Below the pieces are notes generated by a model. That model was not told where the DNA came from. It made no database searches and was given only the letters and a program-made list of their open reading frames with translations. A stretch of 64,000 nt of DNA from NCBI GenBank assembly GCA_051010635.1, contig JBPCVJ010000002.1, positions 14,848 through 78,847 on the forward strand, in the 5' to 3' direction. Every line of letters starts with the position of its first letter. Positions within the stretch are counted from its first letter, which is position 1. The stretch is from Alphaproteobacteria bacterium (GTDB lineage: Bacteria > Pseudomonadota > Alphaproteobacteria > JASGCL01). Shown piece after piece: positions 2,010 to 18,518 of this stretch. The translations under genes were made by a program, and so were the position numbers.

Positions 2010-2609
2010 CTAGTCGTCGCTTTTCATAAAATGGCTAGGCTTCATATCGGTTGAAATAGCTACCACCCCTGATCGCACCAATTCTATCTTACCCAAATCA
2101 TAAGCCCATTTAATAAATTGTTCTGTGTCAGCCACATGGCCACTATATTCAATTATCATACCGCGTGCCATATTTTTAATAACCATCGCACCTTTCTTTT
2201 CTATTTGGGCAATGATTTTTTTTCTCTTATCTTCTGTGCCCTCCAGCAATAATTTTATCAATATAATTTCTACTGACATAAAATTACCATCGGTGGTCAA
2301 ATCATGCACCTCATGCACCGGTACCAACCTTTCAAGCTGGGCTTTAATTTGCCGAATGGTTTTTTCATTACCCAATGTCACCAATGTAATTCTTGATAAA
2401 TAATTATGCTGGCTAACCGGCGAAACAGTAAGGCTTTTGATATTATAACCCCGCCCTGAAAACAACCCCACCACCCTTGCCAATACCCCCGCTTCATTAT
2501 CCACCACCACTGCTAATGTATGAAAACGCCTTTTGGTTTTTTCTTCGCTGATTTCATAAGCCGAAGCTGGCGGCGCATCATCATGGATAGGTTTTTTTTT
2601 ATTTGTCAT
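2010..2609 (-). CDS. ilvH: Acetolactate synthase small (regulatory) subunit
   Basis: ACT-domain AHAS small-subunit pattern HTLAVVVDNEAGVLARVVGLFSGRGYNIKSLTV. Start set at MTNKKK (ATG complement at 2607-2609), 8 nt downstream of the ilvB stop. Confidence 0.85.
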   Translation of the reverse strand: MTNKKKPIHDDAPPASAYEISEEKTKRRFHTLAVVVDNEAGVLARVVGLFSGRGYNIKSLTVSPVSQHNYLSRITLVTLGNEKTIRQIKAQLERLVPVHEVHDLTTDGNFMSVEIILIKLLLEGTEDKRKKIIAQIEKKGAMVIKNMARGMIIEYSGHVADTEQFIKWAYDLGKIELVRSGVVAISTDMKPSHFMKSDD

Positions 2610-2616
2610 ATTTATA

Positions 2617-4383
2617 TCACACCAAAGTTTTTCCTGCCTTGTCAATAGCCTCTTCCCCCTCCACCATCGGCCCCAACAACATTTCATTATGTGGCTTACC
2701 CGATGGTATCATAGGATAACAATTTTCCATTGGGTCAATACAAACATCCACCATCACTGGTCCATCATATAAAAGCATTTTATCAATTATCGTATCCACA
2801 TCTTTTGGTTTTTCCACACGCAAACCCAACCAGCCAAAACTCTCTGCCAATTTAACAAAATCGGGCAAAGAATCAGAATAACTTTCTGAATAACGCCCAC
2901 CATGCAACAATTCTTGCCACTGACGCACCATACCCAAATATTCATTATTAAGAATAAAAATTTTAATCGGCAAACGATATTGTTTGGCGGTTGCCATCTC
3001 TTGCATATTCATCAAAATAGAACCTTCGCCCGCTATATCAATCACCAATTTATCGGGGTTACCAAGTTGTGCCCCTATCGCCGCTGGCATACCATAACCC
3101 ATCGTGCCAAGTCCGCCCGATGTAAGCCAACGATTCGGTTTCTCAAAATGGATATATTGTGCCGCCCACATTTGATGCTGACCCACCTCGGTTGAAATAA
3201 TATAATCACGCGATTTTATTTTTTGTTGTAGGCGTTCTAAAGCATATTGCGGCTTGATAACCTCATCGCTGTTTTTATAATTGAGACATTTTTTACTACG
3301 CCAATCATTTATATTTTGCCACCATTGGCTAAGGTCTGCCTGTTTGGTTGTTTGTGAAAGTGTTTTTAATGTATCACGCAAAGCCAAAAGTGCCGCCTCG
3401 CAATCGGCAAGAATGGTCATATCCACCTCAACCGTTTTATTAAAACTACTACTATCAATATCAATATGAATTTTTTGACTATGGGGCGAAAAATCATCCA
3501 ACTTACCAGTGATTCTATCATCAAACCTTGCCCCCACGCATAACATCACATCGCAATCATGCATCGCCCAATTAGCTTCATAAGTGCCATGCATACCCAA
3601 CATACCCAAAAAATTTTTATCACTGGCAGGAAAAGCCCCAAGCCCCATCAAAGTCAAGGTTACGGGAAAATTTCCCATCGCCACAATGTCTTTCAATAAA
3701 TTAAATCCATGCCCGCCTGAATTGATAAGCCCACCGCCACCATAGATGATAGGTTTTTTTGCCGCCCATAATATTTCGGCAAGTTTTTTTATTTTATGAC
3801 CATCGGGTTTGGTTTGTGGCTGATAACTGGGGTGCGGTTTATCCTTAAAAGATTTATAATCGGTGGCGGCAAATTGCACATCTTTGGGAATATCAATCAA
3901 AACCGGTCCTGGTCGCCCAGCGGTTGCCACATAAAAAGCCTGATGAATAACCCGTGATAGATTTGTAAGGTCCTTCACCAAATAATTATGTTTGGTGCAA
4001 GAACGGGTGATGCCCGTGGTATCGCATTCTTGAAAAGCATCGGTGCCGATAAGATGCGTTGGCACCTGACCCGAAATACACACTATCGGTATTGAATCCA
4101 TCAAAGCATCGGTTAAACCTGTGATGGCATTGGTAGCGCCCGGTCCCGATGTAACCAATAAAATACCGGGTTTGCCTGTGGATCTAGCATAACCCTCAGC
4201 CGCATGGGCGGCACCGCCCTCTTGCCTCACCAAAATATGGCGAATATGATTTTGTTGAAACAGCTCATCATAAATCGGTAACACTGCCCCCCCCGGATAG
4301 CCAAACACGGTATCAACCCCTTGCTCTTTTAAAACTTGTAGCAAAATCTGCGCACCAGTTAATTGAATTTTATCAGCGGTCAT
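2617..4383 (-). CDS. ilvB: Acetolactate synthase large (catalytic) subunit
   Basis: TPP-enzyme motifs (GYPGGAVLPIYD, ThDP-binding GLGTMGYGMPAAIGA.. NNEYLGMVRQWQ). Start at MTADKIQLTGAQ (ATG complement at 4381-4383). Confidence 0.9.
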   Translation of the reverse strand: MTADKIQLTGAQILLQVLKEQGVDTVFGYPGGAVLPIYDELFQQNHIRHILVRQEGGAAHAAEGYARSTGKPGILLVTSGPGATNAITGLTDALMDSIPIVCISGQVPTHLIGTDAFQECDTTGITRSCTKHNYLVKDLTNLSRVIHQAFYVATAGRPGPVLIDIPKDVQFAATDYKSFKDKPHPSYQPQTKPDGHKIKKLAEILWAAKKPIIYGGGGLINSGGHGFNLLKDIVAMGNFPVTLTLMGLGAFPASDKNFLGMLGMHGTYEANWAMHDCDVMLCVGARFDDRITGKLDDFSPHSQKIHIDIDSSSFNKTVEVDMTILADCEAALLALRDTLKTLSQTTKQADLSQWWQNINDWRSKKCLNYKNSDEVIKPQYALERLQQKIKSRDYIISTEVGQHQMWAAQYIHFEKPNRWLTSGGLGTMGYGMPAAIGAQLGNPDKLVIDIAGEGSILMNMQEMATAKQYRLPIKIFILNNEYLGMVRQWQELLHGGRYSESYSDSLPDFVKLAESFGWLGLRVEKPKDVDTIIDKMLLYDGPVMVDVCIDPMENCYPMIPSGKPHNEMLLGPMVEGEEAIDKAGKTLV

Positions 4384-4470
4384 TTTTTTTCTTTCAATAA
4401 AACAAATACTCACAACAGATGAACATGTCAAGGTTGCGATAATTGATAAATTATTTTATAGGCTTGATAT

Positions 4471-5334
4471 ATGAAAAATTTAATCACCATGTTACGCCCA
4501 CACCATTGGGTTAAGAATCTTTTGGTTTTTACGATTTTGGTTGCCGCCAAACAGGCTTTTAACATTGAATTGCTTTGGCAAAATATCATTGTTTTTTTTC
4601 TATTTTGCCTATCTGCATCAAGCGGTTATATTATCAATGATGTGCTGGATAAAAAAAATGATATGCGGCACCCATCAAAAAAATTTCGCCCGATCGCATC
4701 GGGCAAGGTTTCTATATCCATAGCCTTCATCACGACTTTTATTTTATTATTGCTGATGGCATGTTTATCATTGGTATTTTTTTCACCAATGGTTTTATAT
4801 TTGCTGTTTGGTTATTTTCTATTGGCAGTTTTTTATTCCCTCTACTTAAAAAAATTACCGATACTTGACCTGATGATGCTTTCTTTATTTTATTTTTGGC
4901 GGGTGTGGGTGGGTAGCGAATCTGCAAACATACCATTAAGTTTTTGGCTTATCATTTTTACATTGTTTTTATTTTTTAGCCTATCTTGCCTGAAACGATA
5001 TGTTGAATTACAAAAATCAAAAACCAACCGAGAATATAAAAATATCGGTGGGCGTGGCTATTTGCCAAATGATGATATATTTGTCATGTTGATTGGTATA
5101 GCTTCATCTTTTGCGGCATTGGTGGTTTTGTCTTTATATTTTCATGAAATCAATTATTATTTTTCTTATATCTATATTATCATATTATTCCTTTGGCTGA
5201 TGCGGCTTTGGCTATTGAGTTATCGCAATATCATGTATGATGACCCGCTGGTATTTGCCATCAAGGATAAATGGTCGCTGATATTATTTTTCTTTGCTGG
5301 TGTTTTTATCATCATCGATACGCTGTTGATATAA
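4471..5334 (+). CDS. UbiA-family polyprenyl-phosphate 5-phosphoribosyltransferase (DPPR-synthase, Rv3806c-like)
   Basis: N-terminus RPHHWVKNLLVFTILVAA matches the Rv3806c motif RPRQWVKNVLVLAAPLAA. YIINDVLDKKNDMRHPSKKFRPIASGKVS matches YLVNDVRDVEADREHPTKRFRPIAAGVV, including the Asp-rich NDxxDxxxD. The 287-aa protein has about 8 TM segments. Confidence 0.8.
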   Translation: MKNLITMLRPHHWVKNLLVFTILVAAKQAFNIELLWQNIIVFFLFCLSASSGYIINDVLDKKNDMRHPSKKFRPIASGKVSISIAFITTFILLLLMACLSLVFFSPMVLYLLFGYFLLAVFYSLYLKKLPILDLMMLSLFYFWRVWVGSESANIPLSFWLIIFTLFLFFSLSCLKRYVELQKSKTNREYKNIGGRGYLPNDDIFVMLIGIASSFAALVVLSLYFHEINYYFSYIYIIILFLWLMRLWLLSYRNIMYDDPLVFAIKDKWSLILFFFAGVFIIIDTLLI

Positions 5335-5349
5335 ATTTTATAAAATTTT

Positions 5350-7102
5350 ATGAAACATATACAACATTTAAAAAAATATCTTCTAGCTAATAAAATAGCT
5401 AATTATATTTTTTCTTATCGCCTTTACATATTATTTATATTGTTGGTGGTGGCGTGTTTTTATTCTTTTTATAAAAATTCATTCCATATTGTCAAACCAC
5501 ATGCCATGGCAAGCTATCAAAAAAAGGTGGAGGCAATGGTTCTTAGCTATCTGGTTGCTGATGAATATTCTATTGATACCCATAACAAGTGGGGGTTTCT
5601 TATGCAGGACCATTCTTATTATAATCATCTCATCATACCAGAAAATCTTTCTATGCATAATATTTGGATGAATAATAAAAAACGCGAATCAATAACATTG
5701 AGGGTAAAATCTTATCAACCCATAGATTATCTATTACCCAGCTACACTCACCCAAAACCCCATACCCTTGTAAAATTAGAATTGGATAAAAATAGTGCCT
5801 TGCCCATAGATGGTCGTTTTAATTATGGAAAAAATAATTATGGTTATAATGGTAGAGATTTATTTATTAATAAAAAATCACCCCCCCCCCCCCCTCAAAA
5901 CCATCATTAGGGCGGTTGAAATAATTGGCGATAAAACTTATATCACCGTTGCCTTACCATTGGATAAATTATCAGCCATCAATCAAAATAATTTTACCAT
6001 TACACTATCTGGCGAACCCATCACTGCAGATAATATTAAAACATTTGGCTTTTGGCCCTATTTCAGTGCCATAGGCGGACAAAGCTATATTTTTTCTTGG
6101 CTTTACAAACATACCGATAACAAAGATATTAAAACATTATGGAAAATCACTGCCCTGTTATCAGCCATTGGCTTGGTTAGTTTAACATTTTTATATTATC
6201 GTTCCAATATCTTTCCCAAGGGATTTTCAATCGCATTTTTTGTCAGTATATTTTTTTCTACCGCCTTTACCCTATATGCTAGAAATCCTTACTGGATACC
6301 ATTCTTATGGTTTTTGCCAATCATATTTGCATTGCTTTATGTCAAGGCAAAATCTATCAAACAACAGAGGATAACTTTATTATTATTATATTTTGCCTTT
6401 CTATTAAAATGTATGACCAGCAGTTATGAATTTCTTAGCCCCATTGTTTTGATGATGGCGGCACCTGCCAGTTATTTATTTTTTGTAAGTAACAACTATA
6501 AAGATAAAATTGCAAATGGTAAAAAATTTCTTATGATATTTTTTATAACATTTTTAGCTTTTGTAACAACCATTTTTATTCATGCCTATATGGTAGGTGA
6601 AATGATATTGCATCAAAATATCATTGAGGGATTCAAATATCTCTATAATGAAAGATTCCGAGTTAGAGTTATAAATCTTTCAGGCTCAGATGACATATTT
6701 CAGCTTCATTCTTATAGTCAACCTAGCCACGAAGTATCTTATCTATCGGTATTAAAAACTTATATTTTTGATAGATGGTATTATAACAATATTATTTGGG
6801 GTATATCGGGGAAATGGTTTCCATGGTTAATTTTTTTAACTGGTTTGATGATCATATCTAATGATTTTATACCCCTAACCCAACGCAAAAGAAAAACCTA
6901 TAGTGCCTTATTTTTATCATTTGTTTTGGTGGCACCATCTTGGTATATTTTGGTAAAACCTTCAGCCTATAATCAGCAACATATATATTATATGGCATGG
7001 TATTTTGGATTCATCGCGGCATTATTTTATATTATAGCCAGCCACTTAAACATCTATAGAAAAATAATTTTTTCTTATGGCAAAATGAAACTTGATAGAT
7101 AA
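5350..7102 (+). pseudogene. GT-C-like multi-pass membrane glycosyltransferase, disrupted by a +1 frameshift in a C14 tract (phase-variable or pseudogene); paralog of the 14079-15878 gene
   Basis: ORF 5350-5910 (frame 1) ends ..KKSPPPPPQNHH*. ORF 5810-7102 (frame 2) continues ..HPPPPLKTII..NNFTITLSG..KTLWKITALLSAIGLVSLTFLYYRSNIFPKGF. The two pieces align collinearly with the N- and C-terminal parts of the intact 599-aa paralog; removing one C (or adding two) fuses them. Confidence 0.75.
5881..5894 (+). repeat. Homopolymeric C14 tract inside the coding sequence (slipped-strand mispairing site)
   Basis: Fourteen consecutive C from 5881 to 5894, read directly. The homologous position in the paralog (14748-14753) has only C6. 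Confidence 0.9.
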
Positions 7103-7125
7103 AATTTTTTTTATATTTTATCTAT
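7094..7125. terminator. Weak AT-rich inverted repeat between convergent genes (possible bidirectional terminator)
   Basis: atagataaaat (7095-7105), a 9-nt loop, then attttatctat (7115-7125). It overlaps both stop codons. The stem is almost entirely A/T, so stability is low. Confidence 0.2.
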
Positions 7126-8580
7126 AAATTCTGTGCCATATTTTTTGGCTATCGCCATAATGGTGGCTTGGGGGTTGCAACCCATAGCGGTTGGCACTTG
7201 CGACCCATCGGCAATATAAAAATTATCATAACCCCATACCAAACCTGTCTGGTCGGTTATACCCATCTGGCGATTACCGCTTGGCGGGCAAGACCCCATT
7301 AAATGGATAGACATCAAATTATAATTTTCGGTTCGAGAAGAATCTTTTTTTACATCTGCCATATTATGCCACCCCCGATGCCCAGCAATATCGGGCATAA
7401 CTTTTTTGGCACCATATGCAAACATAATTTCAGCCAAATACCCCATACCTTTTTTTAAATTAGCAAAATCAACCATCGCCAATTTATAGTTAATCAACGG
7501 GCTATCAAGCATTGGCAAAAAATGAAACCTACCTTTGGCGGTGGGCTTTATCATAACATAATAGGATCCAACATAATCCATATCCTGTAAAAATTCTGAT
7601 GCATTGTCATAATTATTTGCCAATGCCATACCTACAAAACCTCTGGTAAAAATAGAACCACCAAGCCGAATATCTGGCATAAATTCAGAAACAAAAGCCC
7701 CTGGCGCCATGGAAGCAGCCGTTTGAATTTTTTTAGGAAACAAACCAAACATTTTTAGCGTTGGGTGTAATTGAAAATTATCAAATGGCAAATTTGACCT
7801 TACGCCAGATTTTTTTAATATCATTGGCGTGTGGATAGAGCCAGCACAACAAAATACATATTTGAATTCAATCACCAGCTTTTTTGATGTATTATTTTTT
7901 TTCACATCGCAATAGGCACGCACAGCTTTTTTACCCTTAAAGCTAAGACGATTCACACGGCAACCCAATATCACCCTCATACCCCTTTTCAATGCCAATG
8001 GCAAAAGGCTGTTTGACATTGAGCGTTTGCCCTTTATCGGGTTGCCATATATTCTATCATCTTTTTCATCGGGCTTCATAGCAATCGATAAATATTCAGC
8101 GGCATAATTTAATTTTGCGGCACCTTTGATTAAAACATCGCTATCGGCATAATATTTTTTATGATAACTCACATGCATCTGTGAAAAACTTTTATCCCAA
8201 TAGCGAAGCAAATTTTTATAAGACCATGAATCATCTAATTGATAGGCACTTTGCCAATTTTTTACCACCTGTTCATGAGGGCGTTGAAATATTGCCGAAT
8301 TAATTTCGGTTGAACCGCCAAATGTTTTGCCTTCGGCAAATGCGATATTAGGTTTGCCCAATGTTGCGGTTAAACCCGAATTACGCCACAATTTGATAAA
8401 AACCTCTTCGGGTGTTTTTAATTGTTTGATGGGGTATTTTTCCCCCTCCTCCACCATCAAAACATCCATACCATGTTGGGTGGCAATATCGGCTATGGTT
8501 GCCCCGCCAGCTCCAGAACCTATAATCAACAGGTCAGCTTTATAAATTTTATCAGTGGCATTAACATTGATGAAGGTCAT
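7111..8580 (-). CDS. GMC-family FAD-dependent oxidoreductase
   Basis: N-terminal Rossmann DLLIIGSGAGGATIA..VLMVEEG; 489 aa with GMC-type C-terminal region (..GSCPPSGNRQMGITDQTGLVWGYDNFYIADGSQVPT..). Confidence 0.8.
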   Translation of the reverse strand: MTFINVNATDKIYKADLLIIGSGAGGATIADIATQHGMDVLMVEEGEKYPIKQLKTPEEVFIKLWRNSGLTATLGKPNIAFAEGKTFGGSTEINSAIFQRPHEQVVKNWQSAYQLDDSWSYKNLLRYWDKSFSQMHVSYHKKYYADSDVLIKGAAKLNYAAEYLSIAMKPDEKDDRIYGNPIKGKRSMSNSLLPLALKRGMRVILGCRVNRLSFKGKKAVRAYCDVKKNNTSKKLVIEFKYVFCCAGSIHTPMILKKSGVRSNLPFDNFQLHPTLKMFGLFPKKIQTAASMAPGAFVSEFMPDIRLGGSIFTRGFVGMALANNYDNASEFLQDMDYVGSYYVMIKPTAKGRFHFLPMLDSPLINYKLAMVDFANLKKGMGYLAEIMFAYGAKKVMPDIAGHRGWHNMADVKKDSSRTENYNLMSIHLMGSCPPSGNRQMGITDQTGLVWGYDNFYIADGSQVPTAMGCNPQATIMAIAKKYGTEFIDKI

Positions 8581-8849
8581 TTTTTATCCCCCTCAAATAA
8601 AACCAAAAAAGTAAGCGAACGATAAACCCTTATCAATAATTGAAAAAAATGAATATGTTTGCGTAAAATTTTATCCAATTTCAAAAACAAAAATGGTAAA
8701 TAACATAAAGTCAAAATAACAATAGCCCATTTCACATGAAAGGGAGCATTTTTTAATGATTGTTTAACAAATAAAATATGGGGTGGCTTGACCGCTTTGC
8801 GAAAATGAAGCGGCAATGAATGATGTGTCATCAAACGCACGAATATCAT
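8577..8849 (-). CDS. Small hypothetical membrane protein (90 aa) packed between the SDR and GMC genes
   Basis: The ORF exactly fills the gap: its start is 7 nt after the SDR stop and its stop overlaps the GMC start. One predicted TM (WAIVILTLCYLPFLFLKL). No recognisable family. Confidence 0.35.
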   Translation of the reverse strand: MIFVRLMTHHSLPLHFRKAVKPPHILFVKQSLKNAPFHVKWAIVILTLCYLPFLFLKLDKILRKHIHFFQLLIRVYRSLTFLVLFEGDKK

Positions 8850-8855
8850 ATTGAT

Positions 8856-9896
8856 TTAAAAAATTTTTGATGCTTGCTTGGCAAGGGATAATATCCCGCG
8901 CGGCACTGGCTTGCGATGGGTGGATTGATGGGTTTTATCAAAAGAAGAATAGTTTTTTAAATACCAGCGATAGCTATCAACCATCATATCAACATTGCCA
9001 TATTTCGGTTGCCAGCCAAGTGCTTTGGTTATATGGGTAATATCATAATAAAAATCCTTGTGATAACTTAAATAATGCCATGGACCCAAGGGGGATAATT
9101 TTAACTTATCTGCCGTCAATAAAACCAATTTAGCCAAACCAATCGGTAAAGAAATAACTTTTGATTTTGCACCAACTTTTTTAATAAAAGCTTCTAGGTC
9201 ATGCCTTAAACAGCCAAATGGCAAACCACCAACATTAAATAAACCAGATTTTTTTAACAGGGATGCCCTTACACTCACATTCGCCAAATCTTCAACCTGC
9301 ACAAATTGAAACAAATTATTACCCTTGCCAATGATAAAGATATTGGCATCGTCTTTTATCCAATCAAATAATATTTCAAATATACCAAGCCGTTCCTTGC
9401 CAATGACGGTGCGTGGTCTTATTAAACAGGCTGGCAAACCATCTTTCATCGCCTGTTGCACCAATTTATCAGCATCGGCTTTGGCTTTGCCATATTGTTC
9501 TATCGGTTGCAATGGCGCATTGGGCAAAATAGGCATGGTTTTGGCTAAACCAAAAATTGCCGATGATGACATATTACAAAGCATTTTGATATTATGCTTG
9601 AAACCCATATCAATAATATTTTTTGTGCCCACCACATTGACTTCATGAAATTTTTTGCCCGCTTTCGCCAATGGCACCAAAGCGGCATTGTGGTGAATAT
9701 GGGTAACATGTTTCATCACCTTATCGACTGCCGCCTTATCGGTTACATCCAAATAGGCAAAATGATCCTTGAATTCATCATTTTGCCAAATATCGGTTAG
9801 TAATATATTTTGTTTTTTTGCCAAAAGTTGCCTAGCAATATGGCTACCCACAAAACCCGAACCGCCGGTTATCAAATGTAAATCATTATTTGCCAT
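8856..9896 (-). CDS. NAD-dependent epimerase/dehydratase (extended SDR)
   Basis: N-terminal LITGGSGFVGSHIARQLL Rossmann motif; 346 aa with extended-SDR layout. Confidence 0.8.
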   Translation of the reverse strand: MANNDLHLITGGSGFVGSHIARQLLAKKQNILLTDIWQNDEFKDHFAYLDVTDKAAVDKVMKHVTHIHHNAALVPLAKAGKKFHEVNVVGTKNIIDMGFKHNIKMLCNMSSSAIFGLAKTMPILPNAPLQPIEQYGKAKADADKLVQQAMKDGLPACLIRPRTVIGKERLGIFEILFDWIKDDANIFIIGKGNNLFQFVQVEDLANVSVRASLLKKSGLFNVGGLPFGCLRHDLEAFIKKVGAKSKVISLPIGLAKLVLLTADKLKLSPLGPWHYLSYHKDFYYDITHITKALGWQPKYGNVDMMVDSYRWYLKNYSSFDKTHQSTHRKPVPRGILSLAKQASKIF

Positions 9897-10050
9897 GGTT
9901 ATACCCCATCAATATTTTAATCATTTTATCTATGGTTATAAATATCATCGCCATTCATCTGTTTGTTGGTCTTATTAGCCAATATCATAGCGATTGGCAA
10001 ATAGATAATTATCTTGTTATTTTAATAAAAATTATTTATCAACTAACATC

Positions 10051-10677
10051 ATGACGCAAAAAATTTTTCTAAAATGTTTGCTTTATATTGGCTATTATAG
10101 CTGTGGGTTATTTTTAGGATTCCTATTTTATATATTTGGAATGGCATTAGGTATGTTTGATAATGATTTGCTATTTTACCGCGGCATGAAAGTTATTTTG
10201 GTAAGCCAAATATTTTTGCTTGGCTTGTTATTCTTTTTTGATAAAATCATCAACCAGCACCAAAATACCAAAATAAATCAGCTATTAACATTGGCACCAC
10301 TGAAACCCCATATCATAGCCATTGTGCTTGTAGGGGCAAGTATCAATGTGTGTTTTCATTCGGTTGTGCCCACGATCATTGATAGATCCATCAGCGTTTT
10401 TTTATTAGGGTTCACCCATAATTTAGAAAAAAATAATCAAACAGCTAATATTGATAATTGGCGTCAAGGGTTTGATAAAATCTATGCCGATGATTATCAA
10501 GCCATCGAGCGGCGACTAGAAGAACAGATAAGAAGCGGTAATGTTATAACAACATCAAATGGCACAATTATGCTTACCAACAAAGGCAAACAATTTCTTA
10601 TAGCGGCGGCTTACCTTAACAAATTATTGGGGATTGATAATAAACATGTTAACCCGCCCGTTGATAAATTAAATTAG
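10051..10677 (+). CDS. Hypothetical membrane protein (about 4 TM N-terminal half, soluble C-terminal half)
   Basis: 208-aa ORF directly upstream of the GT-C-like gene (23-nt gap). Hydrophobic segments LLYIGYYSCGLFLGFLFYIFGMALGMF, VILVSQIFLLGLLFFF, IIAIVLVGASINVCF. No PAP2 or GtrA motif recognised. Confidence 0.45.
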   Translation: MTQKIFLKCLLYIGYYSCGLFLGFLFYIFGMALGMFDNDLLFYRGMKVILVSQIFLLGLLFFFDKIINQHQNTKINQLLTLAPLKPHIIAIVLVGASINVCFHSVVPTIIDRSISVFLLGFTHNLEKNNQTANIDNWRQGFDKIYADDYQAIERRLEEQIRSGNVITTSNGTIMLTNKGKQFLIAAAYLNKLLGIDNKHVNPPVDKLN

Positions 10678-10699
10678 ACCAAATATATTATCGCCCACC

Positions 10700-12508
10700 A
10701 TGCTACATCAGGTCAATCATCTTAAAACCAGCCCCATCTATATTACCTTTACTGCCATAACGATAATATTATATGGTTTGGTTATTTTCTTTGCCAAATA
10801 TGGGTTTGATATACTTGATGAGGGGTGGTATCTTTTCACTATCACAGACCCTGATTTTACCAAATCACGGTTTCATTATGGTTTGGGGTATCATTATCTT
10901 TTTCTTTTATTAAATGAAAATATTATTCATTTAAGAATTGCCAATATCATTATTTTTTTCATATTGGCATTCTTATTAGCAAAAGAAATTCTTTTTTCTT
11001 ATTTCAAATCATTCAAATTACGCCCTTATCAATTTTTTATTTTATGCGTGGCAATGGCATCCATATCATTATTATATTTTGTTATCATTTACACACCCAG
11101 TTATAATTCTCTTGCTATCAAAGCCCTCATCATTATAGCCATAGGTCTTATCAATATCCTTAATCACCCTACGCCAAAATTAAAAAAATGGTGGCAACAA
11201 AATAGGTGGGGTGCATTAATTTTAGGATTTGGCATGTTTTTACTTTTTCTTGCCAAACCATCATCATTTTTAGCTGTTTGTTTTTTTCTATTGATGATAT
11301 TTTTATTTTATAAATCATCTAGACTGCTCTTTATAATAGCTGGCATCGCAAGCAGTTCACTATTTTCCATTTATATTATTTTATATTTTGAAGCCGATAT
11401 TATCAAATATATTGAAGAAACAAAAAACACTATCATCGCCCTTCATAAGTTAGATCGCCATTATACATGGATCACTCAATTAAACCTATTGCGGGGGATT
11501 TACATACCCAACATAGCATATATTTTCCTTGCCCTGCCCCTCATATATAAAATAGCACTTACCTATCGCCCATCAAGCTCATGGCTTATCATTCGTTTTA
11601 TCAATCGGTATATTGATATATTTATTATGATATGTTTGTCATTGGGTATAGGTTTGGTAAAACCTTCTCATGTATATGCTTTACAAACTTTTTTTGCCAT
11701 CATGATAGTTTATTGGGCTATTTTGATAAATATATTTCACAATAATAAATTCATTGACCAATTATTAAACCCCAAGATATTTGCCATTATATTATTTTGT
11801 TTTTTATCACCCTATCTATTTGCCTTTGGCACAGCCAATATTATATTGTTTCAAATGTGCTTAGGCGCAATTTTATTTGCATTATGCGCTATTTTATTAT
11901 TATCATTTTTACCAAACAAGCCAAATTATCTTTATATCGGTATTTTATTTTCACAATTATTAACTTTTTATTGCACCACCTATTATATCCACCACCCTTA
12001 TCGCCATATTTCTTTTTTTTCTAACCAATTGGCACCATTAAAATTTTATGATAGCCATAACAAACCCTACTACCTCACCGTATCACAAAATTATAAAAAA
12101 CTAATAGAAAAAAGTCGGTCAATTTTTTATAATAATGGTTTTGCCGCAGGAACGCCCATTATAGATGCAACAGGTGTAGCAACCGGAATTATATTTGCGC
12201 TTGATGCCACCCCATTGGGGCGATATTTTTTAATTACCGAAACTGCTATCAAACATGATATTAAACAAAATCAATGCGATAGAATTGCAAAATCTTGGCT
12301 GATGACCATGCCAAGCCGCACAAATGACCTTTGGGGCGTTGTGCCATTACGCCCCAAAGAAATATTAAAAACCTATCATGCCGACCTAAAAACCGATTAT
12401 GATTTTATAGGCAATATCACGGCTTTAAATTTTCGCACCAAAGGCAAAACCGAAACCATCAATTTCTATCGCCCCAAACCTATACTAAAAACCAAATGTA
12501 AAAAATAA
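10700..12508 (+). CDS. GT-C-like polytopic membrane glycosyltransferase (ArnT/PMT-like architecture)
   Basis: 602 aa with more than 10 TM segments. TM1 is followed immediately by the acidic motif FDILDEGWY, the position of the catalytic DE/DD in GT-C enzymes. Lys-rich C-terminal tail. Confidence 0.5.
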   Translation: MLHQVNHLKTSPIYITFTAITIILYGLVIFFAKYGFDILDEGWYLFTITDPDFTKSRFHYGLGYHYLFLLLNENIIHLRIANIIIFFILAFLLAKEILFSYFKSFKLRPYQFFILCVAMASISLLYFVIIYTPSYNSLAIKALIIIAIGLINILNHPTPKLKKWWQQNRWGALILGFGMFLLFLAKPSSFLAVCFFLLMIFLFYKSSRLLFIIAGIASSSLFSIYIILYFEADIIKYIEETKNTIIALHKLDRHYTWITQLNLLRGIYIPNIAYIFLALPLIYKIALTYRPSSSWLIIRFINRYIDIFIMICLSLGIGLVKPSHVYALQTFFAIMIVYWAILINIFHNNKFIDQLLNPKIFAIILFCFLSPYLFAFGTANIILFQMCLGAILFALCAILLLSFLPNKPNYLYIGILFSQLLTFYCTTYYIHHPYRHISFFSNQLAPLKFYDSHNKPYYLTVSQNYKKLIEKSRSIFYNNGFAAGTPIIDATGVATGIIFALDATPLGRYFLITETAIKHDIKQNQCDRIAKSWLMTMPSRTNDLWGVVPLRPKEILKTYHADLKTDYDFIGNITALNFRTKGKTETINFYRPKPILKTKCKK

Positions 12509-12535
12509 AATCAATGTTCAATTTATCCCATGCGA

Positions 12536-13966
12536 TTAACATTCTGGCAGGGCAACCGAAACTTTACTGGCAAGCCCACCCTCGGAGGTTTCTTTGTATT
12601 TATGCATCATATCCTTCCCCGTTTCCATCATGGTTTCAATCACCTTATCCAAACTCACCAGATGCTCGCCATTGCCATGTAAGGCAAGGCGTGAAGCATT
12701 GATAGCCTTCACCGCACCCATGGTGTTGCGTTCAATGCATGGCACCTGCACCAAACCCTTTATCGGATCACAAGTTAGACCAAGATTATGCTCCATACCT
12801 ATTTCGGCAGCATTTTCTACCTGCTCAACCGAACCACCCATGGCTGCCGTCAATCCCGCAGCCGCCATAGAACAAGCCACACCAACCTCCCCTTGGCAAC
12901 CCACTTCGGCTGCCGATATGGAAGCATTTTTTTTATAAAGCATACCTATTGCCGCAGCGGTTAGCATAAAAATTCGCATATTTTTTATATCCTTACCACC
13001 TGGCACAAATCTATGGTAATAAGCCATCACAGCAGGAATAACCCCTGCCGCACCATTGGTCGGGGCGGTAACCACACGACCACCAGCGGCATTTTCTTCA
13101 TTCACTGCTAGGGCAAACACATTCACCCAATCCATGGTTTTCATAGGAATTTCATCAAGCTCCACATCGCCCAATTTCATTTTTATTTCTTGATTCGATT
13201 TTTCTAAATTATCGGCTATTTGTTTGGCACGCCGCCGAATATTAAGCCCACCGGGCAAAATTCCTTCTTGTTGTATGCCACGCTCAATAGAATTGTTCAT
13301 CGCCTGCCAAATATTATCTATAGATTTTTCAATATCTTCTTGCTTACGCCACACCAATTCATTTTCCATCAATAGTTCGGCAATGGTAATATTTTTTTTC
13401 TTGGTGATGCTTAACAATTCTTCGGCACTGTGAAAAATATTGGGCAAAACCACATTGCTTGATGCAGCGGCATTGCTAACGCCGCGGTTAAATTCTTCAT
13501 CGCTTAATACAAAACCTCCCCCCACCGAATAATATGTGTCTTGATAAATCAATTTGCCATTTTTATCGGTGGCAATAAATTCCATCGTATTGGAGTGTTT
13601 TTCTTTAAATTCGCCATAACGAAAATCCAAATGTTTTTCATAAATAAACTCAATTTCATGTTGCTGATGAAGCAAAAGTTTTTTGGATTTTTTGACATGT
13701 TGAATCTTATTTTCAACCAAATTAGGGTCGGTTTCATCTGGTTTTTCGCCCATCAAACCAAGCACAATGGCACGGTCGGTGGCATGCCCCAACCCCGTCA
13801 TAGCCAACGAGCCATATAGTTTCACCGTCAATTCAGCCACATGGTTTAATTTTTTTTGGGTTACCAAATCAGCCACATACCGATTTGCTGCCACCATAGG
13901 CCCCACCGTGTGCGAACTAGACGGCCCAATACCAATTTTAAATAAATCAAAAACCGATAGATGCAT
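12536..13966 (-). CDS. sdaA: L-serine dehydratase, single-chain Fe-S type
   Basis: [24 protein letters not shown] is the canonical SdaA N-terminus, and Cys-containing beta-domain motifs are present. Start at ATG complement 13964-13966. Confidence 0.9.
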
Positions 13967-14078
13967 AATGATACATTCTACCACAAAAAGCCACGATTAT
14001 CAAAAAATTATTGTATTTATATTAAAAATAATTTAGAAAAAACAAGCAAACTATCATTTTTTTACCATCATTCGCATC

Positions 14079-15878
14079 ATGCATATCAAATTAAAACCAT
14101 TATGGTCCTATCGCCATATTGCCATATTTTTGCTTTTGCTAACGGCTTGCTTTTTTTCTTTTTATAAAAATAGCTTTCGCATCGTAAAAAATAATTATCT
14201 TTTTTACCAAACACCCAGCTATGATGAAATGTTGGTCATTGGTAGAATTTTGGTTGATGAATATAACTTAAAAAAAATAATTACGGTGTATAATTTAGAT
14301 AAAATTGATAAACACAATACCAACAGATATGTTGGAAAAGAAGGGGCGACAAAATATAATTTGCTGTGGCCAGATGTGCCTTACCATTTAAGACTTTCTT
14401 ATATTTTTCAATTGCCACAAAATATATTACAAAATAACCAGCCGATTGACGATATAACATTATCACCCATTGCCTATGAAACAAAATGGTGGAAAAAACC
14501 TAACATCATATTTAATAACATATTTAAATTAAGTGATGATAAAATATATTTAACTAGAATAAAGGTCAAAAAAGATAAACTCAATTTTAAACAACATTAT
14601 CAATATAGGAATCAGCCAAGCGAAACAGCCTATAGACATGATTACAGCTACAGCGGTAGAACATTGCTTATCGGCAATTACAAAACCATGGTAAGGCAAG
14701 TTTTATATAGCCCTGCCTCAGACCTTGCCTATATCCACACCACCATACCCCCCGATGAATTACAAAAAATAAAAAAAAATAATTCCACTATCACCCTATC
14801 GGGCAATGTAATGGAAAAAGAAATATTACAAAACAATGTGCGTTTCGCCAGTTATATCAGCACCGTGGGATTACATGGTTATATTTTTTCTTGGCTGTTT
14901 CAACACAGCGATAAAAACCTTGAAACATTGTGGAAAATCACATCATTATTATCGGCATTGGTTATCGTTGGTTTAACATTTTTATATTATCGCAGTCATA
15001 TTTTTCCCAAAGGTTTTGCCATTAGTTTTTTTGCAAGTTTATTCTTATCGGTTATTTTTACCGCCTATGCTAGAGATCTTTATTGGCTACCCTTCACATG
15101 GTTCTTACCATCTATCTTTGCTATCCTCTATATCAAGGCAGAAAACCATTGGCATAGAATTATTTATATATTGCTGACCTATCTTGCCTTTACCTTAAAA
15201 AATATCACCACTGGCTATGAGATAACATCCAGCGTCATATTAATGGCGGCAGCACCAGCGGCTTATTTGCTATTAACCAGCCAATCACTCAATCAAAAAA
15301 TTATCGCCCTCAAAAAATTTTTTATGATATGTTTTCTAGGCGTAGCAGGTTTTTTCACCAGCCTATTGATACTTGCCTACATCAGGGGCGATTCTAATAT
15401 AATTGATGGGTTAAAATCCATTTATGATGTCAATATAACCAAACGCATTATCAATAAAAGCGATGAGAATATTCCTGGCTACATAAGGGATTCCTCCATA
15501 TCTTATTATGAAGTATTTAAAATATTCTTTCGCTGGAATCATGATTGGGGTTATCCCCAAACATTAAACATAATTGATTGGTTACCGATAAAATTTGTTC
15601 ATTTATTTTTCTTATCTTTTTTTATCACTCTATCCAGCTGGGTGGTGCCATTCTTACAACACAAAAAATATATCTATAACAGTCTATTTATCATATTCTT
15701 TCTTACCGCTTCATCTTATATTATCTTGGCAAAATATGATGCCTATCTACATATATTTCAAAATTTGGTTTTGTGGTATTTTGGTTTTATTGCCGCCATG
15801 TTCTATATCATTGCCAGTGGTATGATGACTTATGGCAAAATAATACTTGCCTATGGCAAAAAGAAAATAGCTGTCTGA
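14079..15878 (+). CDS. GT-C-like multi-pass membrane glycosyltransferase (intact paralog of the frameshifted 5350-7102 gene)
   Basis: 599 aa. N-terminal TM, then a conserved acidic motif (RILVDEYNL versus LVADEYSID in the paralog), then at least 10 TM segments. Long collinear identity blocks with the 5350-7102 product (e.g. ETLWKITSLLSALVIVGLTFLYYRSHIFPKGF). Confidence 0.55.
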   Translation: MHIKLKPLWSYRHIAIFLLLLTACFFSFYKNSFRIVKNNYLFYQTPSYDEMLVIGRILVDEYNLKKIITVYNLDKIDKHNTNRYVGKEGATKYNLLWPDVPYHLRLSYIFQLPQNILQNNQPIDDITLSPIAYETKWWKKPNIIFNNIFKLSDDKIYLTRIKVKKDKLNFKQHYQYRNQPSETAYRHDYSYSGRTLLIGNYKTMVRQVLYSPASDLAYIHTTIPPDELQKIKKNNSTITLSGNVMEKEILQNNVRFASYISTVGLHGYIFSWLFQHSDKNLETLWKITSLLSALVIVGLTFLYYRSHIFPKGFAISFFASLFLSVIFTAYARDLYWLPFTWFLPSIFAILYIKAENHWHRIIYILLTYLAFTLKNITTGYEITSSVILMAAAPAAYLLLTSQSLNQKIIALKKFFMICFLGVAGFFTSLLILAYIRGDSNIIDGLKSIYDVNITKRIINKSDENIPGYIRDSSISYYEVFKIFFRWNHDWGYPQTLNIIDWLPIKFVHLFFLSFFITLSSWVVPFLQHKKYIYNSLFIIFFLTASSYIILAKYDAYLHIFQNLVLWYFGFIAAMFYIIASGMMTYGKIILAYGKKKIAV

Positions 15879-15927
15879 TACTAAAAATTATTGTATTTCT
15901 AACAAGAATAATCTAAAAACACATATC

Positions 15928-16296
15928 ATGGCGAATATCCTCACCCATTTGATTAAAATTTTTGATAGTCGCTTTATCGGTAGCGACCCGCTAGGCAATC
16001 GCTATTATGAAAGACGAAAATATGACGCATGGGGGCGCAAAAAACGATTCATCATCTATATCGGCAAGGAAGATGATGCCAGCCTGTTGCCGCCCGAATA
16101 TCACGCATGGATGCATTATATCATTGATGATTTTCCCACCGCAGGGCAAACCAGCTATCGTCGTTTTTATCAAAAACCGCATAGTGCCAATCTATCGGGT
16201 AGCCGAATGGCTTATAAACCAAAACGCTCCCCTGCCACTGGCGATTACCGGTCATGGTCGCCCAACAAAATGCGTCATCATCAGCCAAAAAAATAA
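15928..16296 (+). CDS. NDUFA12-like protein (NADH:ubiquinone oxidoreductase 17.2-kDa subunit family)
   Basis: GSDPLGNRYYERRK ... RFIIYIGKEDDASLLPPEYHAWMHYIIDD matches the NDUFA12 family pattern G.NxYYE ... PPEWH.WLH..D. Confidence 0.75.
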   Translation: MANILTHLIKIFDSRFIGSDPLGNRYYERRKYDAWGRKKRFIIYIGKEDDASLLPPEYHAWMHYIIDDFPTAGQTSYRRFYQKPHSANLSGSRMAYKPKRSPATGDYRSWSPNKMRHHQPKK

Positions 16297-16300
16297 TATC

Positions 16301-16798
16301 ATGAGCTTTCGCCAATTTTTTATTCTATTTCGTTTGCGCCTGATGGGCATCGCTGTTATGGCGGGGTTGTTATGGGCAACCTATATGGGTCTGGTTAAGG
16401 TAGGGCAATGCAATAGCGATGGTCGTATGATGTTAAAGGGCGTATTTTCATCGGTGGATGGGGTAAAGCGTGGCACACCCATTTTATTGGCAGGTCTTGA
16501 AGTCGGGGAGGTTTGTGCCCTAACCTATCTAACCGATAAAAATCAGGTGGAGATATTAATGGCGGTTGAAGATAATTTAAATCTTGCCGAAGACAGCGGT
16601 TTTGCCATCGTATCTTATGGATTGAACGAACCAAAAATTATCAACATCACCCCTGGCGGTAGTTTTACCAACCTTGCCAATGGCGATGAAATTATTTATA
16701 CCTTGGGCACAGTAGCAATTGAAAAATTGTTATTGCTGGTGTTGGAGCGTGCCGAATCAAAAACCAATCTTACCAAACCCACATCCAACTTAGAATAA
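16301..16798 (+). CDS. MCE-domain protein, MlaD-like (copy 1)
   Basis: N-terminal TM (GIAVMAGLLWATYMGL) followed by an MCE-like core MLKGVFSSVDGVKRGTPILLAGLEVGEV. Start taken at the ATG 4 nt after the NDUFA12 stop; the longer ORF from 16007 overlaps NDUFA12 out of frame. Confidence 0.6.
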   Translation: MSFRQFFILFRLRLMGIAVMAGLLWATYMGLVKVGQCNSDGRMMLKGVFSSVDGVKRGTPILLAGLEVGEVCALTYLTDKNQVEILMAVEDNLNLAEDSGFAIVSYGLNEPKIINITPGGSFTNLANGDEIIYTLGTVAIEKLLLLVLERAESKTNLTKPTSNLE

Positions 16799-16801
16799 AA
16801 T

Positions 16802-17305
16802 ATGCAAACAAAACATAGTTCATTAGAAATTATTTTAGGTGCAGGGCTTTTGGTGCTGGCGGTTTTGTTTGGTTGGCAATTATGGCAAGATAAAGAAAAT
16901 ATTTTACAAAATAAATTTTATGTGGTGAAGGCATCGCTTGACAATGCAAGTGGATTAGATACTGGCACAGCGGTTAAGATGGCAGGATTAAAAATAGGTC
17001 GGGTCAAAAGCAAAAGCCTAAACAAAACAACCTATCGTGCCGAATTAGAAATAGAAATCAACCAAGATATTAAATTACCAAAAGATAGTCGGTTGGTGGT
17101 TGGCGCATCAGGATTATTGGGATCGCCCGAAATAAAAATTGAACAGGGTGCCTCAAGCGAAATGTTAGCCGCCGGTGCTACATTTGAAAAAACCGTCAGC
17201 CAACCATCGCTGGAAGATATGATAGGTCGCGCGATATTTGTTTTGAATGCGGTGGGCAGTGGTAACGATACCGATCTAAACAATGATGATGCGGTTAAAA
17301 AATAA
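16802..17305 (+). CDS. mlaD: MCE-domain protein MlaD
   Basis: TM (LEIILGAGLLVLAVLFGW) followed by the canonical MCE core YVVKASLDNASGLDTGTAVKMAGLKIGRVKS. Confidence 0.75.
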   Translation: MQTKHSSLEIILGAGLLVLAVLFGWQLWQDKENILQNKFYVVKASLDNASGLDTGTAVKMAGLKIGRVKSKSLNKTTYRAELEIEINQDIKLPKDSRLVVGASGLLGSPEIKIEQGASSEMLAAGATFEKTVSQPSLEDMIGRAIFVLNAVGSGNDTDLNNDDAVKK

Positions 17306-18518
17306 AACAATTTTATTTTTATTACCCGCCATGGAAGCGGGTGGAGTTGAAGGTTTTACCATTGATGCCGCAGCGGCAGTTATCAAAGCGGGCGGTCAAG
17401 CTTTGGTGGCATCAAGTGGCGGTGCGATGGTTGCAACGCTTAACAAAATAGGTGCGGTGCATTTTTTTATGCCTTTCAAAACATCATGGCAAAAATTTTT
17501 TCCATTATTTGTTTTGTTAAGACTCTATCGCTTAAGCAAAAGCAAACATGTTAAATTAATATATGTCGCCAGTCGCAGCCCCGCATGGTATGGATGGATG
17601 GTGGCTAAATTATTACGCCTGCCATTGATAACTGGTTTTCATGGCATCTACAGCGGTTATGGTTTTTTACCCAAAAAATTCTACAACCAAGTGATGACCT
17701 GGGGCAATGCAATTCATGCGGTGAGTTTTTTTGTTGAAAAACATATCAAAGATATTTACAAACCCAAAAACCCCATAGCGGTTATTCATGGCGGGGTGGA
17801 TATAAACAAAATTGCCAAGCACAAAATACTAGACAACGATAAACAATATGCCGATGGGGTATTAAAAAATATTTTCCCCCATAACAACAACCAAAGAATA
17901 ATTTTTATGCCTGGGCGATTATCGCACCTCAAGGGGCAATGGTTTTTGCTTAAAGCCTTCAGCCAATTATTAGAGCAAACCACCAATGACGAAGCAAAAC
18001 ATCACCAATGGCATGATGTGATTTTGTTATTACAATCGGTTGGCAAAAAACGCCACTTAAAAAAATTACACAACATCATCGCCCAAAAAAAACTTGATGG
18101 TAGGATTGGTTTTTTACCCTATCAGGAAAATCTTTTGCCATTTTATGATAGGGCAAGTCTAGTCGTCAATGCCAGCCGTCGCCCTGAATCTTTTGGGCGC
18201 ACCATCATTGAAGCCATGGCATTAAACAAAATAACCATTGCCCCCAATTATGGTGCCGCCCTTGAACAAATCAACGATAGTGTCAATGGTTTTTTATTTA
18301 TCGCCCAATCAAGTGAATCTATGGCAAAAGCTTTGAAACGCGCCTTTAACCTAAGCGACCAACAAAAAAAAAGCATCGAGGTAGCGGGGCGACACAGCGT
18401 AGAAGAAAATTTTTCTTTATCTGTCAAGCAAGGCGAATTGGTAAAATTGATGGCAGAGGTTATGGAGCGTCATCATAATATACCTTCATCAGGCAAAGCC
18501 CGTGTGGCGGCGCCGTAA
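17283..18518 (+). CDS. Glycosyltransferase family 4 (GT-B fold; RfaG-like)
   Basis: GT4 C-terminal EX7E region (ESFGRTIIEAMALNKITIAPNYGAALEQINDSVNGFLF). Confidence 0.75.
   Translation: MMMRLKNKTILFLLPAMEAGGVEGFTIDAAAAVIKAGGQALVASSGGAMVATLNKIGAVHFFMPFKTSWQKFFPLFVLLRLYRLSKSKHVKLIYVASRSPAWYGWMVAKLLRLPLITGFHGIYSGYGFLPKKFYNQVMTWGNAIHAVSFFVEKHIKDIYKPKNPIAVIHGGVDINKIAKHKILDNDKQYADGVLKNIFPHNNNQRIIFMPGRLSHLKGQWFLLKAFSQLLEQTTNDEAKHHQWHDVILLLQSVGKKRHLKKLHNIIAQKKLDGRIGFLPYQENLLPFYDRASLVVNASRRPESFGRTIIEAMALNKITIAPNYGAALEQINDSVNGFLFIAQSSESMAKALKRAFNLSDQQKKSIEVAGRHSVEENFSLSVKQGELVKLMAEVMERHHNIPSSGKARVAAP

Follow-up and report, generated by a model that had tools for sequence, protein, structure and literature searches.

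Arabinan, the glycosylation of pilin, the arabinosylation of Nod factors and the side chains of O-antigens all depend on pentofuranose donors that are linked to a lipid, and DprE1, the flavoenzyme of one route to such donors, is among the most pursued tuberculosis drug targets. Here we analyze a three-gene cassette, encoding a flavin adenine dinucleotide (FAD)-dependent oxidoreductase of the GMC family, a small partner protein and an extended short-chain dehydrogenase/reductase (SDR), in a 64,000-nucleotide (nt) stretch of the genome of an alphaproteobacterium (assembly GCA_051010635.1, contig JBPCVJ010000002.1, positions 14,848 to 78,847; the whole stretch is called the window). The cassette lies beside a gene of the UbiA family that resembles the synthases of decaprenylphosphoryl-5-phosphoribose (DPPR).

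Among the closest described systems are the three-component pentofuranose glycosylation systems, which consist of a polyprenyl phosphoribose synthase (PPPRS), a flippase and a GT-C glycosyltransferase (Kelly et al. 2024, PMC11127046). In Citrobacter youngae O1/O2 these components are ORF15 (a PPPRS that carries a phosphoribose phosphatase domain), the MATE protein ORF14 and the GT-C protein ORF12/GT136, and they are joined by the SDR epimerase ORF13, an extended SDR which alone converts undecaprenyl-phosphate-linked ribofuranose (undP-Ribf) to the xylofuranose form (undP-Xylf), as was shown experimentally (PMC11127046). Two kinds of auxiliary epimerases are thus on record, ORF13 for xylofuranose (Xylf) and DprE1/DprE2 for arabinofuranose (Araf), and “more elaborate systems” with several epimerases have been noted (PMC11127046).

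The window resembles these systems in that it has a UbiA-type PPPRS, an extended SDR and large polytopic membrane proteins, and its relatives have transporters of the SMR or GtrA type; on the other hand, there is no HAD phosphatase domain on the window UbiA protein, and the window has no recognizable flippase. The second comparison is with DprE1/DprE2 of Mycobacterium, the decaprenylphosphoryl-ribose 2'-epimerase, which turns polyprenyl-phosphate-linked ribofuranose into the arabinofuranose form through a 2'-keto intermediate; its counterparts are NoeH/NoeO in rhizobia, and homologues occur in Rhizobium, Salipiger and many metagenomic UbiA loci. In both cases an FAD oxidase and an SDR of the NAD(P)H type stand beside a DPPR-synthase-type UbiA gene and candidates for flippase and GT-C protein; the locus position is the same, the distribution is nearly mutually exclusive, and in the window clade the number of redox enzymes is equal. 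However, the flavoenzyme of the cassette has the GMC fold and not the VAO/FAD_binding_4 fold, and it has an obligatory small partner; its SDR is an extended enzyme of 346 amino acids (aa) whereas DprE2 is a classical SDR of ~250 aa, and most cassette relatives add a second extended SDR. An earlier reading of the window from its letters alone (the sequence-only reading) had drawn this contrast of folds correctly, as was confirmed by Pfam domains and by queries with genuine DprE1 (phmmer) and DprE2, both taken from plasmid locus L086, neither of which found a match in the window.

The locus type is already catalogued: replicon CP032687.1 of Rhizobium sp. CCGE531 is listed in Supporting Information (SI) Fig. 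S12 of Kelly et al. 2024 (PMC11127046), and its single PPPRS match at E <= 1e-20 is located in a GMC locus. That locus comprises an SDR of the window's type (SDR-A), an SMR gene, the small open reading frame (ORF) and the GMC gene, with a 658-aa membrane protein, the second extended SDR (SDR-B) and a HAD-UbiA fusion on the opposite strand. Neither a GMC/FAD enzyme nor the small partner is mentioned in the main text or SI of that paper (PMC11127046), and we found no mention of a GMC or FAD enzyme in such loci elsewhere in the searchable literature; the same literature held no characterized GMC enzyme in a lipid-linked pentose pathway, and neither the y4n gene names of strain NGR234 nor later work on GT136 and PPPRS yielded anything of relevance besides Kelly et al. 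2024. Auxiliary SDR epimerases and the locus type are therefore known, while the variant with a GMC enzyme, a small partner and extended SDRs is uncharacterized.

Our reading of this variant, to which we give a probability of roughly 0.45, is that the GMC protein and its small partner act as a membrane-associated two-subunit oxidase which makes a keto intermediate on a lipid-linked pentofuranose, and that SDR-A reduces this intermediate to the epimer. The module would then be analogous to, not homologous with, DprE1/DprE2, and among the three-component systems it would be a variant of those with an auxiliary epimerase.

Operon structure

The cassette and the UbiA gene are laid out as follows (coordinates of the window):

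8856-9896, minus strand: extended SDR of the SDR-A type, a putative keto-reductase/epimerase (346 aa; PF01370, PF01073)
8577-8849, minus strand: small conserved GMC partner (90 aa; one hydrophobic segment; without a Pfam family)
7111-8580, minus strand: GMC-family FAD oxidoreductase, catalytic subunit (489 aa; GMC_oxred_N, GMC_oxred_C)
4471-5334, plus strand: UbiA-family polyprenyl-phosphate phosphoribosyltransferase of the DPPR-synthase type, without a HAD phosphatase domain (287 aa)

The three minus-strand ORFs were confirmed at these coordinates, in a window whose GC content is ~0.39. Along the minus strand the TAA of the SDR gene is followed by a 6-nt gap and then by the ATG of the small ORF, while the small ORF ends in a TGA that shares nucleotides with the GMC start codon (ATGA); a Shine-Dalgarno-like motif (GAGGGGG) stands 8 nt upstream. 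With this gap and overlap, SDR, small ORF and GMC gene form a translationally coupled operon, which bears out the tight packing of these genes that the sequence-only reading had described. Moreover, the order SDR-small ORF-GMC is retained in a metagenome-assembled genome with 64% identity and in loci with 47%, 44% and 42% GMC identity. The orientation claimed at the same time, divergent from both the UbiA and the GT-C genes, holds only with respect to 10051-12508; the UbiA operon (4471-5334, then 5350-7102) is convergent with the GMC operon, and 5350-7102 ends 8 nt from the GMC stop codon.

The flavoenzyme

In Pfam, the product of 7111-8580 matched GMC_oxred_N at 116.6 bits (cut-off 23) and GMC_oxred_C at 53.8 bits (cut-off 24.6), while a profile of 28 GMC relatives matched solved GMC enzymes only at ~1e-26. 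Among these 28 relatives the FAD motif GxGxxG was intact (G21, G23 and G25 invariant), and H426 and N469 were invariant as well; the latter two align with H447 and N485 of cholesterol oxidase (motifs HPLGGC and GVNPFVT). The AlphaFold model of the protein (pLDDT 88.8) was similar in Foldseek to many GMC structures (E about 1e-28, TM 0.7-0.8, 12-18% identity): the best match was the large subunit of fructose dehydrogenase (FDH; TM 0.80), and cholesterol oxidase, choline oxidase and pyranose/C-glycoside oxidases were about equally good. Neither a signal peptide nor a hydrophobic segment was found in the protein, and no phage carriage of the gene was found in IMG/VR. The enzyme is thus predicted to be a catalytically competent member of a distinct, uncharacterized GMC subfamily.

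Generic annotation (“choline dehydrogenase-like flavoprotein”, “NAD-dependent epimerase/dehydratase”) and weak matches to the BetA and GalE models would suit chance neighbours, that is, a commonplace catabolic dehydrogenase for choline, alcohols or sugars and an epimerase of nucleotide sugars, placed beside UbiA by accident. We regard this as extremely improbable. The NCBIfam equivalog scores were far below their cut-offs, both for the GMC protein (BetA 61 vs 732 bits; cholesterol oxidase 52 vs 850; pyranose oxidase 40 vs 545; MftG 70-80 vs 387-400) and for the SDR (GalE 76 vs 262 bits); furthermore, the small partner is obligatory and occurs fused to the GMC protein, and the neighbourhood is kept across phyla and in all five loci of the window clade, a conserved synteny that effectively refutes the idea. 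Low equivalog scores together with a kept neighbourhood argue that the GMC protein is not a stray choline/alcohol dehydrogenase. The sequence-only reading had named choline or alcohol dehydrogenase orthology, unrelated neighbourhoods and a lack of co-occurrence with UbiA genes as grounds for giving up its proposal; equivalog scores, neighbourhoods and UbiA linkage all came out the other way.

Two groups of characterized GMC enzymes are instructive. FDH (Gluconobacter FdhSCL) and the gamma-alpha FAD-glucose dehydrogenase of Burkholderia are alike in that a GMC catalytic subunit and a small partner are encoded together. However, their small subunits are “hitch-hiker” Gluconate_2-dh3 proteins with a twin-arginine translocation (Tat) signal, and the enzymes work in the periplasm together with a cytochrome c subunit, whereas the window has no adjacent cytochrome gene, no export signal on the GMC protein and no Tat motif on the small protein. 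The pyranose 2-oxidases, C-glycoside 3-oxidases and cholesterol oxidase (~500 aa), which oxidize a secondary alcohol on a glycoside or lipid, are alike in size, in the His/Asn pair and in comparable Foldseek scores; they differ in their low identity (12-17%) and in lacking a small partner and a UbiA/SDR context. Since oxidation of secondary sugar hydroxyls is known from the first two of these, the statement of the sequence-only reading that such chemistry had not been described for GMC enzymes was too broad, although a lipid-linked pentofuranose as substrate would be new.

The small partner

A homologue of the small ORF lies directly upstream of the GMC gene in 73 of the 76 loci that have enough upstream sequence. 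The small ORFs that precede GMC genes make up the c6/c5 family, which the window small ORF matched at E 4.8e-5 in hmmsearch and at 70% in hhalign; the two small-ORF subfamilies matched each other at 96%. Moreover, proteins of 628-656 aa exist in nature in which a member of the small-ORF family is fused in frame to the N-terminus of the GMC enzyme, three of them in the database (P0044, P0061 and P0120) and two in metagenomic loci (L109:7756-10236 and L127:1233-3158); these five fusions support a two-subunit GMC enzyme. The small ORF is a real gene whose product belongs integrally with the GMC enzyme and is more than a spacer, and it is probably a GMC subunit and membrane anchor. An assignment to the Gluconate_2-dh3 small subunits was not supported, as only one of 15 homologues gave a match in the Pfam scan, and a weak one (E 0.26); nor was an RR (Tat) motif found at the N-terminus in small-ORF alignment A2.

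The SDR proteins

The window SDR matched PF01370 at 113 bits and PF01073 (3Beta_HSD) at E 2.5e-26, and carries the motifs TGGSGFVG (TGxxGxxG) and YGKAK (S...YxxxK). It scored 459 bits against the SDR-A profile vs 68 bits against the SDR-B profile, and its closest solved relatives, NSDHL and GalE, were reached only at E 1e-18 to 1e-15. SDR-B is ~25-30% identical to SDR-A, and the Ser-Tyr-Lys triad is kept in both. Among 83 GMC loci, SDR-A orthologues were present in 65, SDR-B in 60 and both in 58; in the relatives SDR-B is often translationally coupled to the GMC gene. A profile search found no SDR-B anywhere in the 64-kb window. The two-enzyme picture of the sequence-only reading was therefore incomplete, as the small ORF is an integral partner and most relatives have a second extended SDR.

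The UbiA protein

The product of 4471-5334 matched the Rv3806c structure 8j8j at E 1.7e-23 and carries the motif NDxxDxxxD...K.FRPIA.G; the invariant NDxxDxxxD, K and RP motifs are common to it and to the PPPRS proteins of the plasmid loci. Its best NCBIfam model was PRK08238, a HAD-phosphatase/UbiA fusion, at 274 bits, but only over model positions 193-478, and a HAD-UbiA query likewise aligned to the window protein in its UbiA part alone. The restriction of the PRK08238 match to the UbiA half indicates that the window UbiA lacks the phosphoribose phosphatase domain. A HAD domain on UbiA is present in 13 related GMC loci.

Conserved neighbourhood across genomes

We read the best 80 loci of 560 GMC relatives (scan, one genome per species), using profiles from the window proteins and clustering of neighbouring ORFs; ORFs of fetched loci were called mechanically by script, and their labels follow chosen profile thresholds. 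UbiA linkage was counted within 10 kb, not genome-wide, on locus contigs many of which are incomplete, and linkage counts refer to the 48 GMC loci with at least 5 kb on both sides (full-flank loci).

The GMC loci span Alpha-, Beta- and Gammaproteobacteria, rhizobia, Cyanobacteria, Acidimicrobiia, Myxococcota, Patescibacteria and one member of the Bacillota. In the non-actinobacterial full-flank loci the small ORF was present in 25/25, SDR-A in 23/25 and a DPPR-synthase-type UbiA within 10 kb in 17/25. Flippase candidates of the SMR or GtrA type, DUF218 proteins and PMT_2-type GT-C proteins recur in related GMC loci. The Acidimicrobiia-type loci hold large polytopic membrane proteins, PMT_2-type GT-C proteins, acyltransferase_3 and GT4 genes, and may be cell-wall glycan loci. 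In L060, L067 and L049, for example, the set of small ORF, GMC, SDR-A and SDR-B is found among several paralogous membrane proteins of ~680 aa.

Within the window clade, identity to the window is 64% for the metagenome-assembled genome L003/L004, and GMC identity is 42% for L005, 47% for L171/L172 and 44% for L173. All five window-clade loci that were read carry SDR-A, the small ORF, GMC and a short HAD-less UbiA, without SDR-B: for example, L173 is composed of just these four genes, between dnaKJ and rsmB, and L171 lies inside an O-antigen-like locus where a GtrA-family gene adjoins UbiA. In the window (2010-4431 and 12536-16296) and in L003 the cassette sits between the same housekeeping genes, with ilvB/ilvN on one side and an L-serine dehydratase gene and an NDUFA12-like gene on the other; internal order and orientation of the cassette differ between the two, and two genes for membrane proteins are found in the window only. 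The unit of this clade thus consists of the flavoenzyme, a single SDR and the phosphoribosyltransferase. The tie between the GMC/SDR pair and a DPPR-synthase-type UbiA, which the sequence-only reading had proposed from a single locus, thus recurs in the five window-clade loci and in most of the non-actinobacterial ones.

The cassette also occurs on symbiosis plasmids. On pNGR234a (L084, NC_000914.2, 299.6-307.7 kb) it is flanked by insertion sequences and lies a few kb from nodS/nodU, and it is found on pRCCGE531b (L085), on M. japonicum pMLa and on other symbiosis plasmids. L084 and L085 carry the full cassette (SDR-A, SMR, small ORF, GMC, the 658-aa membrane protein, SDR-B and HAD-UbiA), and across nine such plasmids the UbiA proteins share 77% identity or more.

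These neighbourhoods bear on another explanation, in which a cholesterol-oxidase-like GMC enzyme and 3-beta-HSD-like SDRs modify a lipid alcohol (polyprenol, or a hopanoid- or sterol-like lipid), with the UbiA link reflecting a shared lipid carrier. Consistent with it, cholesterol oxidase is the strongest C-terminal sequence match of the GMC profile and among its top structural matches, SDR-A matches NSDHL and the HpnA, OleD and SdmB models in addition to 3Beta_HSD, and no UbiA lies within 10 kb in 31 of the 48 full-flank loci. However, none of these matches comes near the cut-off of its family, sugar enzymes such as GalE and pyranose oxidase are matched at least as strongly, and the conserved companions are genes of glycan modification (UbiA, SMR/GtrA, PMT_2-type GT-C, acyltransferase_3, O-antigen/capsule genes), while the loci showed neither isoprenoid cyclase genes nor sterol genes. 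A lipid-alcohol substrate is therefore very unlikely.

Distribution relative to DprE1/DprE2

Among plasmids searched with tblastn, 94 records had a PPPRS-type UbiA, but only 10 records had a GMC match at E <= 1e-30. The loci on plasmids of R. leguminosarum WSM1325 and Salipiger comprise HAD-UbiA, GtrA, an FAD-binding oxidoreductase, a classical SDR and membrane proteins; their oxidoreductase and SDR are genuine DprE1 and DprE2, with E 3.8e-84 and 3e-28 to the structures 4aut and 21gq_C respectively (L086). A Vibrio plasmid locus combines UbiA with nothing more than an EamA/SMR transporter and a membrane protein; a Vibrio PPPRS gene had no match in E. coli genomes (blastn). The azorhizobial arabinosylation genes NoeCHOP are also of the DprE1/DprE2 type, not GMC.

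Metagenomic UbiA loci were found with a 6-sequence UbiA alignment, and the best 80 of a larger match set were read. Of these, 32 had DprE1, two had GMC (with the small ORF in frame with GMC) and none had both; a further two (L095 and L152) had an SDR-A-like gene and SMR without any flavoenzyme. Two of the 32 DprE1 loci (L118:9341-13692 and L155:9389-13766) show the order UbiA, DprE1, SMR and an extended SDR that is 33-35% identical to SDR-A, while DprE2 is absent from the whole 20-kb loci; they are apparent hybrids of the DprE and GMC systems, and they indicate that the SDR-A clade can occupy the reductase position. Conversely, DprE1 was found in only one of the 80 GMC loci (L075). The same-slot arrangement, the near-exclusive distribution and the loci with DprE1 and an SDR-A-like protein fit an oxidase-plus-reductase pair that acts on polyprenyl-phosphate-linked ribose.

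Proposed mechanism and the alternatives

Gene identities, operon structure, conserved linkage and a distribution complementary to that of DprE1/DprE2 are observed; from them we infer substrate, order of steps, oxidized position and product in the following general form: i) UbiA, whose homology to DPPR synthase is evident and whose exact step is presumed, would make a lipid-linked ribose; ii) after dephosphorylation, the cytoplasmic GMC enzyme would oxidize a sugar hydroxyl of polyprenyl-phosphate-linked ribofuranose to give a keto intermediate; iii) the one-helix small partner would hold the flavoprotein at the membrane; iv) the extended SDR would reduce the keto intermediate with inverted stereochemistry, to give an epimeric pentofuranosyl donor of the Araf or Xylf type; v) the donor would be flipped across the membrane, where polytopic membrane glycosyltransferases would use it to decorate a surface glycan. 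Neither sequence nor fold discriminates between oxidation at C2', C3' and C5', and therefore only the general mechanism is proposed. The oxidation-reduction pair on a lipid-linked sugar, as put forward in the sequence-only reading, thus stays plausible, but its 2'-epimerization is unsupported, as nothing points to C2' or to arabinose.

Several points weigh against this mechanism: i) the searchable literature holds no biochemical data for any cassette member; ii) no 5'-phosphatase was recognized in the window cluster, where no DUF218 homologue was found and the scanned cluster ORFs matched neither HAD nor PAP2, although an unrecognized phosphatase may be present; iii) SMR and GtrA profiles match nothing in the 64-kb window, in which no search was aimed at MATE flippases; iv) the GT-C identity of the window membrane proteins is assumed, with no Pfam or NCBIfam match; v) no UbiA lies within 10 kb in any of the 23 Acidimicrobiia-type loci; vi) a two-enzyme scheme leaves the second SDR of most relatives, SDR-B, unexplained; vii) the SDR-A-like genes of L095 and L152 occur with UbiA and SMR only, so the SDR may not need a GMC partner, and by analogy this arrangement suggests a self-sufficient epimerase like ORF13; viii) L075 (Ectobacillus polymachus NZ_JBLREB010000001.1, 9589-17697) has the small ORF, GMC, UbiA, DprE1 and DprE2 together, without SDR-A or SDR-B. 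L075, a capsule-like cluster that also has LPG_synthase_TM, a DUF212/PAP2 protein and a PMT_2 GT-C protein, holds both systems, so its GMC enzyme does something other than replace DprE1. The replacement of DprE1/DprE2 that the sequence-only reading had considered therefore agrees with the shared slot and the near-exclusive distribution, while L075 speaks against a simple equivalence.

The last two points lead to an alternative with two separate steps, in which SDR-A is a stand-alone, GalE-like epimerase of polyprenyl-phosphate-linked ribofuranose and the GMC enzyme with its partner oxidizes the lipid-linked pentose separately; the GMC enzyme may then leave a keto-sugar or oxidize C5' to an aldehyde or uronate, and SDR-B would process the product further in most relatives. 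Besides L095, L152 and the complete DprE1/DprE2 pair of L075, it draws on the precedent of ORF13 acting alone (PMC11127046), on the coupling of the GMC gene usually to SDR-B and not to SDR-A, and on the many GMC enzymes that oxidize primary alcohols (choline oxidase, hydroxymethylfurfural oxidase) and are equally close structural neighbours. On the other hand, the window clade has no SDR-B and keeps SDR-A, small ORF and GMC in one coupled operon, the mutual exclusion of GMC and DprE1 outside L075 is more easily explained by equivalent jobs, and the SDR-A-like proteins that stand alone share only 32-38% identity with true SDR-A and may thus differ in function. Two separate steps are the main rival of the proposed mechanism, and we hold them to be less likely than it.

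A bolder reading is that the small partner/GMC enzyme and the extended SDRs are a third independent route from lipid-linked ribofuranose, after DprE1/DprE2 and ORF13, and that the full set of GMC, SDR-A and SDR-B gives a donor unseen in any glycan. Such a donor could be D-lyxofuranose, inverted at C2' as well as at C3', or else a derivative of a pentofuranose in keto, uronic or decarboxylated form. The cassette is spread over Proteobacteria, Cyanobacteria, Acidimicrobiia and rhizobial symbiosis plasmids. We consider this reading doubtful.

Neighbouring genes in the window

The remaining features around the cassette are membrane-protein genes and a homopolymeric tract:

5350-7102, plus strand: paralogue of the 599-aa membrane protein, split in two ORFs (5350-5910 and 5810-7102), with a poly-C tract
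5881-5894, plus strand: homopolymeric tract of 14 C at the frameshift point, read from the sequence
10051-10677, plus strand: 208-aa membrane protein (p208) that has three or four hydrophobic segments and ends in a soluble domain
10700-12508, plus strand: 602-aa polytopic membrane protein (p602) with a GT-C-like layout, a candidate glycosyltransferase
14079-15878, plus strand: 599-aa membrane protein (p599), the orthologue of which adjoins the cassette in L003

Compared with 14079-15878, the two halves of 5350-7102 show 44% and 33% identity, and it is precisely at the run of 14 C that the reading frame shifts. The tract may serve a surface-glycan gene as a switch for phase variation by slipped strands, or the assembly may be wrong in this homopolymer.

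Homologues of p208 with a conserved DRSIS(V/F)FLL motif were found in L003, L016 and L022; a role of p208 as flippase or phosphatase was rejected, since it showed no relation to SMR, GtrA or DUF218 and no family match. p602 has ~12-13 hydrophobic segments within residues 13-404, with FDILDEG right after the first segment, followed by a C-terminal domain of ~200 aa; a word-based protein search returned no homologue of it other than itself. The same type of search returned for p599 only itself and one relative, while a full HMMER search of 1.84 billion representatives returned 970 relatives at E <= 0.001, a family without a Pfam model; one relative (P0132) is fused to an acyltransferase_3 domain. 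The p599 family was absent from all other GMC and UbiA loci and is thus not a universal partner of the cassette. An AlphaFold model of p599, built from three sequences, was unusable (pLDDT 41), and profile-profile comparison of the large membrane proteins between loci gave no match.

Significance

The three-gene cassette is widely conserved. In the window it stands beside the gene of an enzyme for lipid-linked ribose, in the slot that DprE1/DprE2 take in other UbiA loci, and it probably remodels that sugar before its addition to a surface glycan. The analysis also gives a function-linked context to two unannotated protein families, the small GMC partner and SDR-B. If the proposed mechanism is true, a non-homologous set of flavoenzyme and reductase occupies the same pathway position as DprE1/DprE2, and the chemistry would have evolved more than once; moreover, the enzyme toolbox for pentofuranose glycoengineering would be larger. 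Finally, pentofuranose or modified-pentose decorations would then await discovery in many environmental bacteria and on rhizobial symbiosis plasmids, close to nod genes in the case of NGR234.

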